From sequence record OZ335964.1: a DNA stretch of 64,000 nt; one strand, 5' to 3'. Numbering within the stretch: position 1 is the first letter of the stretch; the number at the start of each line of letters is the position of its first letter. Below the pieces are notes generated by a model. The model was given only the letters and a program-made list of their open reading frames with translations, did not search any database and was not told the origin of the DNA. This document shows, in pieces, positions 2,852 through 40,368 of the stretch. The position numbers and the translations under genes are program-made. This DNA comes from a phage.

Positions 2852-4852
2852 ATGACTCTATTATCACCGGGTTTCGAAACGAAAGAAACTACTCTCTCCA
2901 CTACCATTGTGCAATCTGCGACTGGTCGCGCTGCACTGGTGGGTAAATTCCAATGGGGTCCAGCTTTCCAGATTGTTCAAGTGACTAATGAAGTTGAATT
3001 AGTTAATAAATTTGGTCAGCCGGACAGCAACACCGCAGATTATTTTATGAGTGGTGCTAACTTCCTCCAGTATGGTAACGATCTCCGTGTTGTTCGTGTA
3101 CTGAATACAGAGAAAGCTAAAAACGCAACTACCCTCGCGGACAACGTAGAATTTAATATTACTAATGAAGGTTCCAACTATAAAGTTGGTGATCAGATTA
3201 AAGTAAAATATAACCGCACAGAAGTAGAAACGGCTGGTAAAGTAACTAAAGTTGATGCGGAAGGTAAAATTAAGGGCGTATTCATTCCTACTGGCAAGAT
3301 CATTGCTCTCGCTAAATCTGTAGGAGTTTATCCTAATCTGGCAGGGTTTACCGTTGAAATTACTTCCAGCACAGGTAACTCCAATGGTGCAATGACGCTG
3401 GCAAGCGTTGTTACTGATTCCGGTCTTCTGTTAACTGATCTGGAAACTTCCCGCGATAAAATCACTAACCAGACCTTCTTGAATAAACTCAAGAAATATG
3501 ATATGCCGTCTGTAAGTGCTATCTATGCTGGTGAAATTGGCAACTCGTTAGAAGTTGAAATCCTGGCGCGTAGTGCATTTACTGGAACTGCACCGAATCT
3601 GACTATGTACCCTTACGGCGGCGAGCGTACCGCAGCACGCAACCTTGTACCTTATGGTCCACAGACTGATGATCAGTATGCTATCATTGTTCGTCGCGAT
3701 GGTGTTGTGGTAGAATCCTTTGTATTGTCTACCCAGAAAGGAGATAAAGACGTTTACGGCAATTCCATCTATATGGATGATTTCTTTGCCCGTGGTGCTA
3801 GCCAATACATCTACGCAACGTCTCACGGTTGGGTAAAAGGCTTTAGTGGTATCATTTCTCTTGCAGGTGGTGTTTCTGCTAACGAAGCAAGCACAGGTCA
3901 TGACGGTCAGAATGATCCGTTTATCGGTGCTATGATGAAAGGCTGGGATCTGTTTGCTGAACGCGAATCTATCCACGTAAACCTGTTGATTGCTGGTGCA
4001 TGTGCTGGTGAGGCTGATACTTTCTCTACAGTCCAGAAATACGCTGTTTCCATCGGTGATGAGCGTCAGGATTGTTTGGTAATGATTTCTCCGCCGCGTA
4101 GCACTGTTGTTAACATTCCGGTAACTACCGCAGTAGACAATCTGATCAACTGGCGCGAAGGTAAAGATAACTATTCTGAAAACAACATGAATATCAATAC
4201 CACCTACGCAGTTATTGACGGTAACTACAAATATCAATATGACAAGTACAACGATGTAAACCGTTGGATTCCTCTGGCTGCCGATATTGCTGGCTTGTGT
4301 GCTCGTACAGATGCAGTTTCCCAACCGTGGATGAGTCCGGCAGGTTATAACCGAGGTCAGATCCTGAACGTGGTTAAACTAGCAATTGAGCCTCGTAAAG
4401 CACATCGTGATCGTCTGTATCAATGCGCCATTAACCCGATCATTGGTGCGGGTGGTGAAGGATTTGTGCTGCTGGGCGATAAGACTGCTACAACTGTTCC
4501 GAGTCCGTTTGATCGCATTAACGTTCGTCGTTTGTTCAACATGCTGAAAAAGAATATCGGTGATTCAAGCAAATACAAACTGTTTGAAAACAACGATAAC
4601 TTCACTCGTGCATCTTTCCGCATGGAAGTTTCGCAGTATCTGAACACGATCCGCTCGTTGGGTGGCATCTATGATTTCCGCGTACAGTGTGACACCACAA
4701 ACAACACCGCAGACGTGATTGACCGTAATGAGTTCGTGGCTAGCATGTTCATCAAACCTGCTAAATCCATCAATTACATTATGTTGAACTTCACGGCTGT
4801 TGCAACTGGTGCTGACTTCGACGAAATCATCGGTCCAGCTAATCAGGCGTAA
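2852..4852 (+). CDS. 18: Tail sheath protein (T4 gp18-like)
   Basis: 666-aa ORF directly after gene 17, size and position match T4 gp18; RBS GAGGAAA upstream. Confidence 0.9.
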   Translation: MTLLSPGFETKETTLSTTIVQSATGRAALVGKFQWGPAFQIVQVTNEVELVNKFGQPDSNTADYFMSGANFLQYGNDLRVVRVLNTEKAKNATTLADNVEFNITNEGSNYKVGDQIKVKYNRTEVETAGKVTKVDAEGKIKGVFIPTGKIIALAKSVGVYPNLAGFTVEITSSTGNSNGAMTLASVVTDSGLLLTDLETSRDKITNQTFLNKLKKYDMPSVSAIYAGEIGNSLEVEILARSAFTGTAPNLTMYPYGGERTAARNLVPYGPQTDDQYAIIVRRDGVVVESFVLSTQKGDKDVYGNSIYMDDFFARGASQYIYATSHGWVKGFSGIISLAGGVSANEASTGHDGQNDPFIGAMMKGWDLFAERESIHVNLLIAGACAGEADTFSTVQKYAVSIGDERQDCLVMISPPRSTVVNIPVTTAVDNLINWREGKDNYSENNMNINTTYAVIDGNYKYQYDKYNDVNRWIPLAADIAGLCARTDAVSQPWMSPAGYNRGQILNVVKLAIEPRKAHRDRLYQCAINPIIGAGGEGFVLLGDKTATTVPSPFDRINVRRLFNMLKKNIGDSSKYKLFENNDNFTRASFRMEVSQYLNTIRSLGGIYDFRVQCDTTNNTADVIDRNEFVASMFIKPAKSINYIMLNFTAVATGADFDEIIGPANQA

Positions 4853-34148: not shown

Positions 34149-34653
34149 AATTTAGCAGATCTTCACACTGTTTACGCAGTTTATGACGATATTCTTTAGA
34201 TTGCAGTAGTTGTACTTTTTCATAATCCCCTATTTCATATGCATTTGAGAGATCATCCTGATATGCTGCCTCTGTACCAATTCGGCAAATGTCGTATTGA
34301 CGGGCTTTTTTCAAATCTAATTGTTCTCTCTCAAATTCTTTTCTTCGTTTTTCTTCTCGCTCTTGATACTTTTTATTTTGATATTCGATGTTGCTCTTAA
34401 TCTCTGCAATTCGTTGCTGTGCTTCTTGTGGCAATCCTACACGCAAAGCGGCTTCATCTTTTTTCTGTAACAGGTCGATAACACAGTATTCTGGTTCTTG
34501 ATAAGTCTGATTACCATGTGGATGGTAGTACCAACGAGCGCAATGTTCTTCGATTGACTGTATAGAAGCCGTAGCCGTTCGATAGTCTTTAATATTAGCA
34601 CAACCAGTTAACATGAATACAGCCGCAAGTCCGATTGGTTTAATCATTTTCAT
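34147..34653 (-). CDS. Predicted lipoprotein
   Basis: Signal peptide with lipobox (AAVFMLTGC); charged helical remainder; translationally coupled to the upstream ART-like gene. Confidence 0.55.
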   Translation of the reverse strand: MKMIKPIGLAAVFMLTGCANIKDYRTATASIQSIEEHCARWYYHPHGNQTYQEPEYCVIDLLQKKDEAALRVGLPQEAQQRIAEIKSNIEYQNKKYQEREEKRRKEFEREQLDLKKARQYDICRIGTEAAYQDDLSNAYEIGDYEKVQLLQSKEYRHKLRKQCEDLLN

Positions 34654-35474
34654 TTAGTCACCTCACCGAAAATTGTAAATTGTCTACGATTCTCATCGCC
34701 GAAAGATTCTACTACGTCGTTTACCTTTATGCAAGTCCCGCGCGGTAAAATTACTTCACATTCGCAAGGATTCCATGCAATTGACCCAACAACAAAACCT
34801 TTATGATCTTTTACGTCAATTACCCATGATACATTACAAGAATGTTGCATCTTTCCGGTCATTGATTCATATCGATTCTCACAATAAAGGCTAGTGCTAT
34901 TTGAAAGCCAGCCTCCAAAGATGATCGGTGTCATGCTGGTCGACACAAAGTTTTTAAAGGTAAATTCCTTATCTTCAATAATACGCTCTATTGTCTGAAT
35001 GTCAAGATGTTGACCGCGATAAAGAGTACCGTTTAACTTTTCGGTTTTATCCATGACACAATCCATCAAATCGACGATCTCTGATATCTCATCGGTCATG
35101 TCTTCTTCCCCTAAGAGAGCACCATTTACCCATTCGTATTGTTCAGACACATAATCACAGATTGCATTATATTCTGCTGGGGTTATGTTGTTATGTTTGT
35201 AATGTTTGAACACATTATCTCCAAAGTCTTCAGAGTGTACTTCATACATCACATTAATGATTTTCTTGACAAATCCATAATCTTGTGTCTCGCGCTCAAG
35301 GAAGCGGATAACATTCACGTAATCATCAAAGTTAATCTGATCGCTGATCATCTCAGTGATCATGTAACCATTAATCCCCTCAATGTCATATGTTTCAATA
35401 TAATTGTCCATACGTTCCATCATTGATTCGCGTGATTCTTCCGAAAGACGAAAATCCTGTAATTTCTTGAACAT
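34650..35474 (-). CDS. Alt-like ADP-ribosyltransferase paralog
   Basis: R-S-E triad context: LYRGQ, FVSTSM, CECEVILPRG, parallel to the motifs in the alt-like ORF. Confidence 0.6.
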   Translation of the reverse strand: MFKKLQDFRLSEESRESMMERMDNYIETYDIEGINGYMITEMISDQINFDDYVNVIRFLERETQDYGFVKKIINVMYEVHSEDFGDNVFKHYKHNNITPAEYNAICDYVSEQYEWVNGALLGEEDMTDEISEIVDLMDCVMDKTEKLNGTLYRGQHLDIQTIERIIEDKEFTFKNFVSTSMTPIIFGGWLSNSTSLYCENRYESMTGKMQHSCNVSWVIDVKDHKGFVVGSIAWNPCECEVILPRGTCIKVNDVVESFGDENRRQFTIFGEVTK

Positions 35475-35552: not shown

Positions 35553-37604
35553 TTACATTTTAAATTTATCTGGCATAGCGTCTACAGATACCAGATCAGC
35601 GATAAGCTGACGTAGAGTTGCCTTATCTGCTTTCTTACGTTCGGTTTTAGCTTCGGTAATAAAGCTGGAGAAAGACAGGTCAGAAGCAGGTTTAACAACA
35701 CCTTCACGGATGAATGCATCACCGTCCGCGATCATCTCGCCAGATTCTTGTAATGCTGCCAGTTCATTTTTGTTCATAATATGTGCCTCAATGTAATAAG
35801 TTTCTTGTGAATCCGTCGATGCCGTAGCACGAGTTACCGTATCAAAGGATAACACAACACCGCGAGGAAGTAAAATCTCGCATTCTTTGTAAGCAAATGC
35901 TTTGTTACCTACTGGCAATACAGGGATGTTTTCCGCGCCAGCAATGGAGAAAGCAACATTAGCGCCACCTTCACCGCGAGATCCAGCCATAGAATCTACA
36001 CCAGCAACGGCACTAGCCACGTTTGCATTCCAGCCACCAAAAATGTTAGGTGCAAGGGAAGTGCTCACATAGTTTTTAAAGTAAAACGCTTTTTGCTTAC
36101 GTGCAGTTTCCCACATTTGAGACCGGAAGTCCATACCACGATACAGAATAGTACCAGGATCAAGTTTAACGCCATAGTTAGAGAAGGCATTATCCAGTGC
36201 ATCGCACATCTTGACCAATTCTTCTGGATCTGCGATGCCTTCAAACTCTTCCAGCTTACGGTCGGTTAGGAAGTTGTTCATATTGATGTATGCTGCATCG
36301 GCATATTCGCTCAACACAAAACCTTCCGCGCCAGGCAGATCAAGATCAATATCTGCCATCATTTCACCCATGTTGCTAGCAATTGCTTCAAACATACCGG
36401 AAGCAACATTACGTAGGGCATCGGTTTTAATCTGGGTGATATGACTACGCAGCATTTCAGCTTTTACATCTGCTGGCATAGACTGGTCTACTCGATCCAT
36501 TGCCAGTGCGGTGATCTTGTTTTCGAATACTTCCTCGCTCATGATTTCTTTTAAGCGTTTGATTGATGCTGCGATAACTTCCGCAGACAACGGATCATAT
36601 TGATCCTGAACTTTTACCAGTTCACTTACTGCGTATTTTGCATCGGCTTCGCTTTCAAAAATAGTACGCATGAAACCATAGCGAGTGATAATATCACTTG
36701 TCCAGTCATTCAGAGAACGGGCGGTTGAACGTTCTAAGGCTTGACGATCAATCAGAGTATTAAACTGTTTCTTAGGTTCGGCTTCGGTGATATCTTCTTC
36801 CGGTTTAAGATTAATTTTTTCTGGATGATTCACATAGTCGCTGTTATAGGTCGCTTGAGTTTTCAGCATTTCTTCTTTAGTCAAACGAGACTTAGCCGCT
36901 ACACGTTGTTCTGCTTCCGCGTTTCGTTCTTCTTCTGATGCAAGGCTAGCCGCATACGCTTCATCTTTAGTCAGAGATTCACCAGTAGCTTTAGATACCC
37001 AGCGATCACCTAAATCACTTTCTACTTTAGTGAACAGGGAATCATCAAGTTTAATCCCTTTAATCTTATCAATCGACATCCCGCGACGCTTGACAACAAC
37101 TAAAGCGATCTTTTTGCTGGTCATTACTTCCTGCTGGAATACTTCAAACTTAGGAGTACGACGCACCAAACGCTCTATAACGCGCTTAACCAGTTCGGTC
37201 TTACCTTTCATGCGGGATACGTTAAAACGGAACATAACAGCGTCTAATTGCGCTTTACGGGCTGTTTCCATAACCACATCAAAAGCACTTGCCATAACTG
37301 CAATCGGGTTATCGCCTAGACCATTTTTAAGCTGTACAATACGACCGCTTTTGTTCATCTCGCACAGTACAACATGTGCGGTCTTGTCACCCATACGAAT
37401 GATTTTAGGTGTTTTGTTGGTGAAGTTACAAAGACGGACAATCACATCTTTATCGCGTGTCTGTACTGCAAAAAGCTGTTTAGGGTTCTGCTTAGGCTTT
37501 AAGCACTGTACCGGAGCAATACTACCAAAGTTTTCTTCCTCTTCCGTCAACAGCCATTTCTCGAAAGATTCAATCATTAGATCGTCGATTTCTAAGTTAA
37601 ACAT
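35553..37604 (-). CDS. alt: Alt ADP-ribosyltransferase (internal head protein)
   Basis: 683 aa, T4 Alt-sized; C-terminal ART motifs ILYRGMD, YVSTSL, ECEILLPRG; position after gene 54. Confidence 0.8.
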   Translation of the reverse strand: MFNLEIDDLMIESFEKWLLTEEEENFGSIAPVQCLKPKQNPKQLFAVQTRDKDVIVRLCNFTNKTPKIIRMGDKTAHVVLCEMNKSGRIVQLKNGLGDNPIAVMASAFDVVMETARKAQLDAVMFRFNVSRMKGKTELVKRVIERLVRRTPKFEVFQQEVMTSKKIALVVVKRRGMSIDKIKGIKLDDSLFTKVESDLGDRWVSKATGESLTKDEAYAASLASEEERNAEAEQRVAAKSRLTKEEMLKTQATYNSDYVNHPEKINLKPEEDITEAEPKKQFNTLIDRQALERSTARSLNDWTSDIITRYGFMRTIFESEADAKYAVSELVKVQDQYDPLSAEVIAASIKRLKEIMSEEVFENKITALAMDRVDQSMPADVKAEMLRSHITQIKTDALRNVASGMFEAIASNMGEMMADIDLDLPGAEGFVLSEYADAAYINMNNFLTDRKLEEFEGIADPEELVKMCDALDNAFSNYGVKLDPGTILYRGMDFRSQMWETARKQKAFYFKNYVSTSLAPNIFGGWNANVASAVAGVDSMAGSRGEGGANVAFSIAGAENIPVLPVGNKAFAYKECEILLPRGVVLSFDTVTRATASTDSQETYYIEAHIMNKNELAALQESGEMIADGDAFIREGVVKPASDLSFSSFITEAKTERKKADKATLRQLIADLVSVDAMPDKFKM

Positions 37605-37673: not shown

Positions 37674-37886
37674 TTATAATGCACCATCAAGCAATTGCTC
37701 TAAGGTGTATCCTGAATAGTCTTTTTCAATCAGGATATATTTTCCTACTCGTTTAATCCAGCCACGCATTTCAACGTATTCTGCGTAGTTGATAGTGCGA
37801 GTTGTTCCATCTTCTAGCAAAGCAGTACCGATTTCGTTAATGCGGTCATAAGTTACGTCGGTGATGATGATTTCGATGTTAGCCAT
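37674..37886 (-). CDS. Hypothetical protein
   Basis: 70-aa ORF behind a conserved early promoter cassette. Confidence 0.5.
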   Translation of the reverse strand: MANIEIIITDVTYDRINEIGTALLEDGTTRTINYAEYVEMRGWIKRVGKYILIEKDYSGYTLEQLLDGAL

Positions 37887-37921
37887 TTGATACTCCTTAG
37901 TAGTTCGTTTCGGTATGTGTG

Positions 37922-37950
37922 CATTATAGGGGATCGATGATCCCCTGTCA
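37922..37950 (-). promoter_or_regulatory. Early sigma70-like promoter cassette (TTGACA-N17-TATAAT) with palindromic spacer
   Basis: Minus strand: AAAAAGTTGTTGACA GGGGATCATCGATCCCC TATAAT, then conserved leader ACCGAAACGAAC and RBS before ORF 37886. Confidence 0.6.
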
Positions 37951-37958
37951 ACAACTTT

Positions 37959-38477
37959 TTAGTTATTTTTTAATTGCTCATCTTGCAATAAAGCAATCAC
38001 ATGCTGGCGATGTTCTTCCGACTGAGGCACACCGAAAAAGTTTGTTTTGTAGAAATACTCTAATCGGTCTTCTCGTGTGCTCTCTTCCATCATGATCGCG
38101 GGTAGTCCGAGATTTCGGAAACGTCGCTTTTCTGCTGGCGTAAAATCGCTGTAATACAGCATAGAATCATCATTACCAGCAATGCTAAACTCATCCTTCA
38201 TGAAAGAGAATATTGCGTTTAAACGCTGTTTACCGTCCACGATTTCGATCTCATAGCGAGAGCCATCATCAATCTTAGCCATTGCGATAGCACCAACCGG
38301 AAAATCATTAATCAGGTTTTCGATAAACATACGTTTGTTTTCTGTGTCCCATACTAAAGGACGCTGATAATCTGGGTTCATGTTGATAAAGCCATCTTCT
38401 AGCCATGCTTCATAGACAGATATGACAAAGTTTTTAGTATTGGTATAGTAACGGCGTTTAGGCGTTAAACGGTTCAT
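37959..38477 (-). CDS. DUF262 / ParB-like domain protein
   Basis: Motifs PDYQRPLVW and IVDGKQRLNAI match the DUF262 (GmrSD N-terminal) signature; start set at MNRLT with RBS AGGAGA. Confidence 0.5.
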   Translation of the reverse strand: MNRLTPKRRYYTNTKNFVISVYEAWLEDGFINMNPDYQRPLVWDTENKRMFIENLINDFPVGAIAMAKIDDGSRYEIEIVDGKQRLNAIFSFMKDEFSIAGNDDSMLYYSDFTPAEKRRFRNLGLPAIMMEESTREDRLEYFYKTNFFGVPQSEEHRQHVIALLQDEQLKNN

Positions 38478-38478
38478 G

Positions 38479-38811
38479 TTATAGTCTCCTGAATGGATCA
38501 TCACGTAAATCAATATCTTTTAAGAACTCATCCCATGAATGGCGGATATTGTTCTTAATTCTCCAGATAAGCGCAGGGATTGAACGCTCTCCCATCTGGA
38601 AGTAAGGATCATATGATCCGTATGCCCAATATGCTACTACAATTCCACAATCAGCGCAATAGTATTCTATTTCACTTGCTGGCGACCAAAGTCCATCAAT
38701 ATGATCGGTGATCTTGCTTTCGATGTTATGGCTATGGCAATCAGGGCAACGGATGCAATGACCTTGTTTATCGTAATTTGACGTTAGCGAATACTTAAAC
38801 AATCTCATCAT
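38479..38811 (-). CDS. Zinc-ribbon protein
   Basis: CIRCPDC...C..C..YYCADC cysteine pairs; translationally coupled between the MTase-like and DUF262-like genes. Confidence 0.45.
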   Translation of the reverse strand: MMRLFKYSLTSNYDKQGHCIRCPDCHSHNIESKITDHIDGLWSPASEIEYYCADCGIVVAYWAYGSYDPYFQMGERSIPALIWRIKNNIRHSWDEFLKDIDLRDDPFRRL

Positions 38812-39572
38812 AGATCCTTATTGGCTTCAAATACTGCCTTTGCGAATCCTCGCGGGGTAAGTGACCTGATAGTCTTTGTTCTGGTTCCTTTCCCGCCTAG
38901 CTTAGAATGCTGTTTACTGTACCCTTTCTCAATCGGCAACGGTTTCTTTTCTGGCATTATAAAGCCTTGTCCGGTCCATAAGCAAGTCTTTTTCGGGTAC
39001 ATATCACGGGCGGCAATATACTCAGGAAACGTAGGATGTATATCATCTTCCGGCAAATAACCGCCATATTCCCACGGGTGGAACATGTAATCAGGCTTAC
39101 GCCACATGCTAGAGATAACGCTTACAGGATTCTCTATCATGTAGGGAACTCCTAGCCATTCACCCAAATAAGCTGTTATTTTAGCTGCCCGTACATCATG
39201 AACTTGAATTAATGGTCCTTGCTCTCGTTTCTTTCGTTCAAAGTGTGCAGCGCCACTAACAGCTAAATTTGAACAGCTAGGAAACGCAAAGATCATATCC
39301 GGTTTGCCCCATTCAAGATCCATCGCCCTTTCCAACCAATCCAGATCTATCCATGAATTAACATAAGTTAAATTTGGGTGTTCAAATCGAGTGTTATACT
39401 TTTTATATGTTCCATGATCGGCATCATCAGCATTAAAGCAGATCACTTTATGACCTGCTTTAGCCCATTCTAGACCCATAATACCGGACCCATCGAATGT
39501 ACAAAATATAAGTTTACTTTCCGTGGTTTTCATGATAGCCATACTCTCTTTCTGCTTTGGTTCTAACTGCAA
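38808..39572 (-). CDS. SAM-dependent methyltransferase-like protein, possibly DNA cytosine-C5 type
   Basis: Motifs FDGSGIMG (motif I-like), FPSCSNLAVSG (PC-like), MIENP (ENV-like); true start probably an internal Met because of overlap with the upstream HNH gene. Confidence 0.4.
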   Translation of the reverse strand: MQLEPKQKESMAIMKTTESKLIFCTFDGSGIMGLEWAKAGHKVICFNADDADHGTYKKYNTRFEHPNLTYVNSWIDLDWLERAMDLEWGKPDMIFAFPSCSNLAVSGAAHFERKKREQGPLIQVHDVRAAKITAYLGEWLGVPYMIENPVSVISSMWRKPDYMFHPWEYGGYLPEDDIHPTFPEYIAARDMYPKKTCLWTGQGFIMPEKKPLPIEKGYSKQHSKLGGKGTRTKTIRSLTPRGFAKAVFEANKDL

Positions 39573-40050
39573 CGGCTTCTTCTAGTGTGTCGAAACACCC
39601 TAGATATTTTCTATCACCGCGTCGACCGCCGCCAATTCTAACTACCCATTTATTGTATTTGTTTTTATGTATTCCACTATGTCCGCTTGTATTCTTTTTA
39701 GACTTTGTTTGATTTCTCATGTTGTCGCGGTGTAGTTTAAGTTCAAAGTTAACCGCTCTATTATCTGTCTTAATGTGATTAATATGATCTACTTCATATC
39801 CTTCTGGTATAGGTCCATTGTGGATAATATAACATACTCGATGAACTTTGTAGTTAATAATTTTACCGTCAATTTTTATTGACGATTCAAGATAACGTCC
39901 ACCACTTCCTAGTGACCCGACCTCCTTTCCAGCCCATGCAGCATTCCATTGTTTTATTCTTGATGGGTGTATATCTGTTCTCTCCTTCCATGTAAGGATA
40001 CCAGTGTCAGGATCATAATTAAAGTATTTCTTCCAGTCTATATTGTTCAC
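39514..40050 (-). CDS. HNH homing endonuclease with AP2 DNA-binding domain
   Basis: HNH core (YEVDHINHIKTDNRAVN) and AP2-like region (KWVVRIGGGRRGDRKYLGCFDTLEEAVAVR). Confidence 0.75.
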   Translation of the reverse strand: MNNIDWKKYFNYDPDTGILTWKERTDIHPSRIKQWNAAWAGKEVGSLGSGGRYLESSIKIDGKIINYKVHRVCYIIHNGPIPEGYEVDHINHIKTDNRAVNFELKLHRDNMRNQTKSKKNTSGHSGIHKNKYNKWVVRIGGGRRGDRKYLGCFDTLEEAVAVRTKAEREYGYHENHGK

Positions 40051-40298
40051 GCTGCCCCCATTGGTTTGATAGTAACAGAATCTAAAAGACCTTTGTTAGC
40101 CAGTTCGCGGCAAGTTTTCAGATCCGTAACTTCCCAGCCAGCCGCAATCAGGTTATCAATCAGGCTGTTAGCAACTTCTTCGCTCATGAAAGAGCACTGT
40201 TTGCCGATGGTGTAGCGTACACGCTGTAATTTCAGTTTACGGAAGCCTTTAACGTTCAGGTCTTTAGCGATTTTCTTTGCGGTTTCGATGTTAGCCAT
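40047..40298 (-). CDS. Hypothetical protein
   Basis: 83-aa ORF directly downstream of an early promoter cassette. Confidence 0.5.
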   Translation of the reverse strand: MANIETAKKIAKDLNVKGFRKLKLQRVRYTIGKQCSFMSEEVANSLIDNLIAAGWEVTDLKTCRELANKGLLDSVTIKPMGAA

Positions 40299-40338: not shown

Positions 40339-40368
40339 ATTGTAGGGGATCTCCCGATCCCCTGTCAA
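40339..40368 (-). promoter_or_regulatory. Early promoter cassette (TTGACA-N18-TACAAT), palindromic spacer
   Basis: Spacer GGGGATCGGGAGATCCC; conserved leader and RBS AGGAGA before ORF 40298. Confidence 0.55.

Follow-up and report, generated by a model that had tools for sequence, protein, structure and literature searches.

The Seg and Mob enzymes of phage T4 are free-standing homing endonucleases encoded beside conserved genes that they cut. In the phages RB49 and phi1, PeSL cassettes are a substrate of recombination for modular shuffling (PMC2839356). The GmrS domain carries the motifs QR, (I/V)DGQQR, and FxxxN, as defined by Machnicka et al. (PMC4619093). Dcm of phage K42, the product of a 711-bp gene, was expressed alone in E. 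coli and raised 5-methylcytosine (5mC) on the multicopy single-stranded DNA (msDNA) of retron Ec86, as detected by mass spectrometry coupled to liquid chromatography (LC-MS); a C82A/E128A/K175A/K176A mutant gave no rise in 5mC, and K42 phage that loses dcm escapes the retron (bioRxiv 10.1101/2023.08.16.553469). Relatives of these elements lie together in a 64,000-nt stretch of phage DNA (sequence record OZ335964.1), hereafter the window, where the minus strand at positions 37959–39572 encodes a methylase, a zinc-ribbon (Zn-ribbon) protein, and a stand-alone DUF262 protein. The initial annotation suggested for this trio a module of DNA modification and/or interference with host restriction. Our analysis favors a different reading, to which we assign a probability of about 0.6: the trio belongs to one early unit of co-transcribed, translationally coupled but independent accessory genes assembled in Krischvirus, which encode a Dcm-like methylase, a minimal ParB/Srx-type DUF262 protein, a Zn ribbon, and an HNH homing endonuclease specialized on dcm-like genes.

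By their sequence, the three genes are real, tightly packed, and translationally coupled. Their boundaries had been drawn as the longest possible open reading frames (ORFs) from TTG codons, positions that the ORF list confirms, and the likely products are shorter, in keeping with the annotated orthologs (238, 109, and 172 aa for RB49ORF189c, RB49ORF188c, and RB49ORF187c; 241, 109, and 172 aa in phage phiS). The methylase gene (38808..39533, minus strand; RB49ORF189c homolog) opens at TTG 39572 in its maximal form, and its likely start is ATG 39533, giving 241 aa, or ATG 39542, both within the 3′ end of the HNH gene. The Zn-ribbon gene (38479..38811, minus; RB49ORF188c homolog, phrog_2993) likely starts at ATG 38811 or 38808, for 110 or 109 aa, and the DUF262 gene (37959..38477, minus; RB49ORF187c homolog, phrog_1583) at ATG 38477, preceded by AGGAG, for 172 aa. 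Coupling is visible at each junction: the methylase TGA overlaps the Zn-ribbon ATG or ATGs (CTATGATGAG), the DUF262 ATG follows the Zn-ribbon TAA by one base, and the HNH gene overlaps the methylase start by 20 nt.

The predicted transcription unit is larger than the trio and runs orf83, HNH, methylase, Zn ribbon, DUF262, and the link supported among its members is transcriptional alone. It opens with a PeSL-type early promoter (40339..40368, minus) composed of TTGACA, a GGGGATC..GATCCCC stem-loop in an 18-nt spacer, and TACAAT, which scores 11/12 in the consensus scan. The first gene, orf83 (40047..40298, minus), is a homolog of RB49ORF190c (phrog_14908) with no assigned role, followed by the HNH_3 homing-endonuclease gene (39514..40050, minus), an optional insertion between orf83 and the methylase. 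A perfect PeSL-type promoter with a 17-nt spacer, TTGACA-GGGGATCATCGATCCCC-TATAAT (37923..37951, minus), begins 8 nt past the DUF262 stop codon, ending this unit and opening the one that follows (orf70, alt). Both bracketing promoters hold the GC-rich stem-loop (GGGGATC...GATCCCC) within the spacer. Between them, the consensus scan of the minus strand returned no convincing terminator, its sole site (39087..39065) lying inside the methylase coding sequence. Across the window, TTGACA-N17-TATAAT occurs 13 times with at most one mismatch, against 1.1 expected, always on the minus strand; matches lie at 37923, 44136, 45073, 55763, and elsewhere, several with the GGGGATC...GATCCCC stem-loop in the spacer.

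The 2.7 kb around the trio match 64 phage records, and those listed are RB49-like Krischviruses (Straboviridae) at or slightly above 95% identity, which places the window phage in Krischvirus. Among the 64 records, phiS alone covers the whole 2.7-kb stretch; the remaining ones lack about 20% of it. Outside this genus the three genes part company. Our sample of viral loci comprised 55 around a short DUF262 gene and 80 around the methylase. No methylase or Zn-ribbon gene lies within 4 kb in any of the 53 DUF262 loci from outside Krischvirus, and no Zn-ribbon or DUF262 gene within 3 kb in any of the 79 methylase loci from outside the genus. A DNA methylase (PF01555) was found among the immediate neighbors of DUF262 once in 67 cases, probably on contig L005, where a short DUF262 gene (4001–4507, 46% identical to that of the window) overlaps the end of a gene for a 357-aa N6/N4-type methylase (2953–4026, TSPPYF). 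Since co-occurrence is zero in these loci outside Krischvirus, we reject the trio as a conserved defense or anti-defense system, and the coordinated module first proposed is not supported: each family is widespread without the others nearby, and confinement of the combination to one genus marks its members as ordinary accessory genes rather than a new three-part system. The activity of K42 Dcm on its own in E. coli likewise indicates that the methylase needs no phage partner. The one pairing seen to be conserved is on a metagenome contig, L008 (k141_110561, 23–1528), which carries orf83 (74% identity), the Zn ribbon (67%), and DUF262 (56%) in a row, with neither methylase nor HNH gene. This arrangement suggests that the methylase, with or without HNH, was inserted into an older orf83/Zn-ribbon/DUF262 block, or was lost in the L008 lineage.

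The methylase belongs to a large phage family. Residues 8–253 of the 254-aa ORF match phrog_757 (“DNA methyltransferase”) with E 5.2e-89, and the family yields 5137 matches in the protein collection and 1579 phage records, mainly from enterobacterial phages of many types. In the family alignment, the window protein shares 53–94% identity with each of 53 further members. A Pfam scan at E ≤ 10, PF00145 included, and NCBIfam returned no family for it, no solved methyltransferase matched it in a search of PDB sequences with the single sequence or the family profile, and a precomputed PF00145 match accompanies 3 of the 120 listed homologs. With sequence searches against Pfam and the PDB silent, the tie to the C5 methyltransferases comes from structure prediction and fold search: the confident model has the C5 catalytic-domain fold, with 183–192 residues superposed on canonical enzymes. 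Fold and family membership, not Pfam, support gene 1 as a C5-cytosine DNA-methyltransferase-like protein, in agreement with the initial annotation. An N6/N4 methyltransferase was considered and rejected, as there is no DPPY-type motif and the fold matches are C5 enzymes. In several GenBank records of Krischviruses the gene already goes by “Dcm” or “putative C-5 cytosine DNA methylase”.

The three signatures noted at the outset, FDGSG, FPSCSN, and ENP, fall on family-conserved columns. Motif I (FDGSG) and motif VI (ENP) are conserved, and the motif IV cysteine is kept but preceded by Ser instead of Pro. The target-recognition domain is nearly absent, reduced to about 30 residues between the strand 183–188 and IRSLTP, in a protein of 241 aa against 327–328 aa for M.HhaI and M.HaeIII. 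Residues C87, E134, K181, and K182 align with C82, E128, K175, and K176 of a homolog from phage G29-2 (711 bp, 236 aa, ~57% identical), which has C/E/K/K at the positions mutated in K42 Dcm. Between alleles, the ratio of nonsynonymous to synonymous divergence (dN/dS) is 0.07–0.12, which indicates purifying selection on the gene.

Beyond what the sequences and models show (how the genes are built, which families and folds they belong to, where they occur, and what pattern recombination has left), we infer activity, target motif, and biological role as follows. The methylase is a member of the widespread short phage Dcm-like family, with an S-adenosylmethionine-dependent C5 catalytic domain and a target-recognition domain almost gone. 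By analogy with its K42 homolog, it would act alone, methylating cytosine at a sparse short motif. In a host without dcm, such methylation would shield the phage genome against EcoRII and similar type II enzymes, and the predicted activity is the same one that retron Ec86 senses. The DUF262 protein is a minimal ParB/Srx-type nucleotide-binding domain that may bind or hydrolyze nucleoside triphosphate and act on DNA or on a protein partner early in infection. Through the HNH endonuclease, the methylase gene would have acquired its 5′ third and, with it, the unusual PSC loop.

Several observations weigh against parts of this reading. The proline next to the catalytic cysteine is Ser in the window, whereas PPC is found in 120 of the 120 closest listed homologs, so that activity could be reduced or altered. 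For K42 Dcm, the authors took CCWGG over from E. coli Dcm as an assumed target, the sole support being a mutation of the msDNA site (bioRxiv 10.1101/2023.08.16.553469). Krischvirus TB34 carries the methylase gene, yet high-performance liquid chromatography–mass spectrometry (HPLC-MS) of its nucleosides detected no modified bases, and RB49 DNA is cut by HpaII and NheI; together these results imply that any methylation is sparse and not at CCGG. RB49 is also routinely propagated on E. coli B, and retron Ec86 is reported as native to BL21(DE3), a derivative of E. coli B (bioRxiv 10.1101/2023.08.16.553469), a poor fit with a CCWGG methylase that triggers Ec86 unless the phage evades the retron. 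CCWGG is depleted in the window, with 26 sites observed against 74.5 expected (observed/expected ratio, O/E, 0.35), which suggests that these sites are not fully protected; at 26 sites, methylation would touch a very small fraction of cytosines. Finally, Zn ribbon and DUF262 are tightly coupled and also occur together in L008, which keeps a functional link within this pair conceivable.

Other sites are strongly avoided in the window as well: GAATTC is absent against 18 expected, RCCGGY occurs once against 26, and O/E is 0.28 for GGCC and 0.37 for CCNGG; GATC, TCGA, and CGCG are at expectation. This pattern fits a phage with unmodified cytosine that would rely on site avoidance. Krischvirus SAP is reported to be fully cytosine-modified and TB34 unmodified, at 99.96% identity (PMC13390438). 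The locus was rejected as the source of cytosine hypermodification in SAP, as the methylase, Zn-ribbon, and DUF262 coding sequences are identical in SAP and unmodified TB34 over the 5.7 kb compared. Within these 5.7 kb, the two phages differ by two 1-nt indels outside the trio and by a 79-bp tandem duplication, in SAP, of the PeSL promoter cassette directly downstream of the DUF262 gene (L152 2038–2116 in SAP; L151 2037 in TB34). The duplication accounts for 79 bp of the 112-bp difference in genome length and may be missed by a single-nucleotide-polymorphism caller; we claim no bearing on the modification phenotype.

The third gene matches Pfam PF03235 with 72.6 bits (cut-off 33.2; E 6.3e-20). 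In the alignment of the short DUF262 family (eight sequences, seven homologs and the window protein), YQR..VW, DGKQR, F...N, and GVPQSEEH are invariant. All three GmrS motifs are present in the window protein, the first Q of DGQQR being replaced by K; they comprise Q38-R39, I79-V80-D81-G82-K83-Q84-R85, and F142...N146 (FYKTN), all invariant except I79 and V80. The best AlphaFold2 model has a predicted local distance difference test score of 88.6, against 50–58 for the other four, and retrieves Noc, ParB, BrxU, PadC, sulfiredoxin, and Osa in Foldseek, a fold call that derives from one good model built from eight sequences. A sequence search against the PDB gave chance matches to sliding clamps only. 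No second Pfam domain was found in the protein, nor a C-terminal DUF1524/His-Me (HNH) nuclease domain, for which there is no room, because the protein ends at residue 172 and a promoter lies 8 nt past the stop. On profile and model, gene 3 is a true DUF262/GmrSD_N domain with a ParB/Srx fold and no nuclease domain, and cannot itself be a GmrSD-type nuclease; the stand-alone DUF262 signature first reported (YQR..VW, IVDGKQR) is borne out.

Short DUF262 proteins, typically about 165–180 aa, are conserved in temperate phages, ST64B for one, and in several T4-type genera, among them Krischvirus, Pseudotevenvirus, and Slopekvirus. Orthologs with 35–39% identity occur in RB43/RB16/Lw1, Slopekvirus, T4-type phages of Cronobacter and Yersinia, and ST64B, and family members measure 162–178 aa, apart from one of 282 aa. 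Decay from a full-length GmrSD was considered and dismissed: the gene keeps its short length from genus to genus and has a dN/dS of 0.03–0.06, which does not suit a truncated pseudogene.

By its cysteines, gene 2 is a CxxC...CxxC zinc ribbon, as initially proposed, and a common small early phage protein with no assigned role. In a family alignment of 22 sequences, C21, C24, and C54 are invariant, C51 is present in at least 90%, and a YWAYGS.DP motif is conserved; Pfam zinc-ribbon matches stay below their cut-offs (Zn_Ribbon_TF, 19.8 bits against 29). A word-indexed homolog search gave a single cluster, and an exhaustive search of representatives (E ≤ 1e-3) was used instead, which found 164 representative proteins of 50–140 aa; by tblastn the family is present in 293 phage records. 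In JenP2, VLCpiS10a, and PM-CJR, the homologs sit among small early genes with neither methylase nor DUF262 near.

Directly upstream of the methylase, where an HNH-AP2 gene had been noted, the HNH part is secure (PF13392 HNH_3, 54.9 bits against a cut-off of 24.8, E 6.9e-15; phrog_99, E 3e-53). The AP2 part was not recovered by Pfam, even for the isolated C-terminus at E ≤ 10; in a single BLASTP comparison, the protein matched a plant AP2 domain weakly (30% over 44 residues, E 5e-5). Among the 64 related records, the gene is shared with phiS alone, and it is absent from RB49 and from the Krischvirus loci L016 and L017. The slot between orf83 and the methylase is empty in L016, holds an 81-aa ORF in RB49 and L017, or holds the HNH gene, a polymorphism that supports the gene as a mobile insertion.

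The adjoining methylase gene is diverged on one side. Its synonymous divergence (dS) is 0.32–0.50, against 0.03–0.19 for the Zn-ribbon and DUF262 genes, and compared with three alleles from HNH-less Krischviruses its first ~285 nt have 79% nucleotide identity, against 96% downstream. The divergence stops at the codons of the catalytic loop (39267..39284, minus), which read TTT CCT AGC TGT TCA AAT in the window and TTC CCA CCG TGC ACC AAT in RB49, that is, F-P-S-C-S-N in the window and phiS and F-P-P-C-T-N in RB49, L016, and L017, the form usual in the family being F-P-P-C-T-D/N (window-type allele, CCTAGCTGTTCA; RB49-type allele, CCACCGTGCACC). The diverged 5′ tract (39270..39545, minus) looks like a homing co-conversion tract. 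The HNH gene had been called consistent with a mobile module; we reject it as mobilizer of the whole module, since only the 5′ part of the methylase gene is diverged and HNH is tied to that gene alone.

A related-locus search with the HNH protein alone gave no matches, and tblastn against phage records found its closest homologs (64–67% identity) in 13 records of T1-like phages. The match overlaps a second annotated feature in all 13, called a cytosine or DNA methyltransferase in 8. In both T1-like records that were opened, the HNH gene lies directly upstream of a dcm-like gene and overlaps its start, and contig L004 has this arrangement too. The catalytic loop is P-D-C in the two Warwickvirus alleles that carry HNH, and L004 keeps P-P-C. 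We read this HNH lineage as candidate homing endonucleases dedicated to dcm-like genes, with a cleavage site probably at or near the PPC-coding sequence and immunizing changes in some carrier alleles. The association was not met in our literature searches, which were few and none of them aimed at it.

How far the loop change matters bears on the first alternative, that the window allele is impaired or altered in specificity through P86S/T88S, fixed for immunity to HNH and/or for escape from Ec86. PSC is confined to the two HNH-carrying Krischviruses, the window phage and phiS, and is replaced by PPC in RB49, L016, L017, and all of the closest listed homologs; both HNH-carrying T1-like (Warwickvirus) phages examined have a PDC loop, the divergent tract ends exactly at the P86S/T88S codons, and loss of Dcm gives K42 its escape from Ec86. 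However, the allele retains the catalytic Cys along with the glutamate of ENP and both lysines of the KK pair, purifying selection extends over the whole gene (dN/dS ~0.1), and L004 has the HNH gene yet PPC; we regard an impaired allele as unlikely. That the trio forms one DNA-modification system, in which a methylase short of its target-recognition domain needs the Zn ribbon and/or DUF262 to load onto or open double-stranded DNA, is very unlikely. Translational coupling, the small methylase (241 aa, with ~30 residues where the target-recognition domain would sit), and the DUF262 gene overlapping a methylase gene in L005 speak for such a system, as does a phage ParB homolog that is required on double-stranded DNA by thymine dioxygenase, a DNA base-modifying enzyme (PMC13229309); but the combination fails to appear in 79 methylase and 53 DUF262 loci outside Krischvirus, a methylase is among the DUF262 neighbors in 1 of 67 cases, L008 keeps Zn ribbon and DUF262 and has no methylase, the DUF262 genes of RB43, Slopekvirus, and ST64B have unrelated neighbors, and K42 Dcm is active when expressed alone in E. 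coli.

The remaining alternatives concern DUF262. As a speculative and rather improbable proposal, the compact DUF262 proteins could constitute a family of phage nucleotide switches that disarm host DUF262 defenses (GmrSD/BrxU, SspE, Dnd-type) by subunit mimicry, or that activate a DNA-modifying enzyme on duplex DNA, as in the ParB partner of thymine dioxygenases, with the Zn ribbon as partner in Krischvirus. A dedicated anti-defense factor that mimics the N-terminal nucleotide-sensing domain of host GmrSD/BrxU/SspE-type enzymes and poisons them, either by pairing with them in mixed dimers or by tying up nucleotide or DNA, appears quite unlikely. The protein shares the GmrS domain and motifs, matches the fold of BrxU, and would be expressed from an early promoter; DUF262-only proteins can be subunits of type IV enzymes, as GmrS1 is required with GmrSD2 in ECOR17 (PMC12373910), and Krischviruses do meet BrxU, to which SAP is sensitive and TB34 is not. 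Yet the ordinary cytosine of RB49 and TB34 DNA offers no substrate to modification-dependent enzymes, making the need doubtful, the likeness to BrxU is at the level of fold (Foldseek E 1.5e-3, 13% identity), and the phage proteins known to inhibit GmrSD (Ip1-3) are injected and unrelated to this one (PMC12373910). An exclusion or nuclease function of DUF262, perhaps with the Zn ribbon, against competing DNA of modified T-even phages or the host is highly improbable. Nuclease activity has been reported for certain ParB/Srx proteins (Osa, plant sulfiredoxin) and proposed as possible for GmrS (PMC4619093); Osa is among the fold matches, the PADLOC models NsnA and PD-T4-2_A match the protein, and the family is present in the temperate phage ST64B. 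The PADLOC matches, however, span only the shared DUF262 domain of far longer proteins, the protein has no identifiable nuclease motif, and no partner nuclease is conserved beside DUF262 genes. Independent accessory genes in one early unit remain our preferred reading.

The initial placement of the locus in the hyperplastic region between alt and gene 30 is sound. A full-length Alt of 683 aa is encoded at 35553..37604 in the window, and in the RB49 annotation the locus lies between alt and gene 30, which is ~10 kb beyond alt on the same strand, with ~28 small unnamed ORFs separating the two. A second Alt-like ADP-ribosyltransferase gene (34650..35474; 274 aa, phrog_15144) is adjacent to alt; this paralog matches the C-terminal catalytic part of Alt and has a counterpart in RB49ORF183c. 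Between the orf70 homolog and the DUF262 gene, RB49 carries one more cassette, RB49ORF186c, in which an ORF of 180 nt comes with a PeSL of its own (RB49 L001 3285–3603); it is absent from the window (37886–37959) and from phiS. In the comparison of the window, RB49, and phiS, several intergenic positions hold recurring short PeSL-like repeats.

Every part of the unit is of a known kind: a short Dcm-like methyltransferase, a Zn ribbon, a DUF262/ParB-fold domain, an HNH homing endonuclease, and PeSL cassettes. Tight packing in the hyperplastic region of a T4-type phage is no evidence for a functional system; the neighbors here are shuffled PeSL cassettes. Identifying the methylase adds little beyond its unusual catalytic-loop variant, because the family already has one characterized member. 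A lead is offered by the widespread phage family of short DUF262-only proteins, which has no assigned role. Another is the HNH lineage that follows dcm across phage families, with an apparent target at the catalytic-site codons, which could explain how methylase alleles move between unrelated phages. Whether a phage is sensitive to retron Ec86 and to 5mC-dependent or EcoRII-like restriction depends on its Dcm activity, and it would therefore be of some value to know which therapeutic Krischviruses carry an active allele.

Set against described systems, the methylase is closest to K42 Dcm, the Ec86 trigger from a KarlJaspers-like phage of the Drexlerviridae. The two are of the same family and near in size (236 and 241 aa), have the motifs FDGSG, P-x-C, ENP, PKKT, and IRSLTPRGFA in common, and both resemble DNMT3 in their predicted structures. 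They differ in the loop, which is PSCSN in the window and PPCTD in the family consensus, the G29-2 homolog included; in the type of phage, a T4-type myovirus for the window and a T1-type siphovirus for K42; and in that methylation is known for K42 Dcm alone. With the PF00145 enzymes (M.HhaI, M.HaeIII, E. coli Dcm, DNMT3A/B), the window methylase shares the fold, motif I in its FxGxG form, the catalytic Cys, and the glutamate of motif VI, whereas it is ~90 to 180 residues shorter, essentially misses the target-recognition domain, and has motifs IX and X merged (IRSLTPRGFAxAV).

The DUF262 protein shares with the GmrSD/BrxU type IV enzymes the PF03235 N-terminal domain, the QR, DG(Q/K)QR, and FxxxN motifs, and the ParB/Srx fold. 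Unlike them, it lacks the DUF1524/HNH domain, has less than one third of their length and an additional invariant GVPQSEEH, and is the product of a phage early gene, not a restriction enzyme. RB43ORF182c, ORF274 of the Slopekvirus VAC66, and Sb33 of ST64B are full-length orthologs of the same size with the same invariant residues; they are uncharacterised, and their gene neighbors are unrelated, with neither methylase nor Zn ribbon beside them. The HNH gene resembles the Seg/Mob-type endonucleases of T4 in being an optional gene between two conserved ones, polymorphic in presence among close relatives, with a one-sided tract of high divergence in the adjoining gene, and in that the same HNH lineage stands beside the same gene family in unrelated phages. 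It departs from them in that its cleavage site and activity are predicted. The promoters have the architecture of the PeSL cassettes of RB49 and phi1, with a −35 box, a GC-rich stem-loop in the spacer, and a −10 box (PMC2839356, PMC4122927), and no notable difference separates them, so that the unit as a whole is an ordinary PeSL-bounded module.

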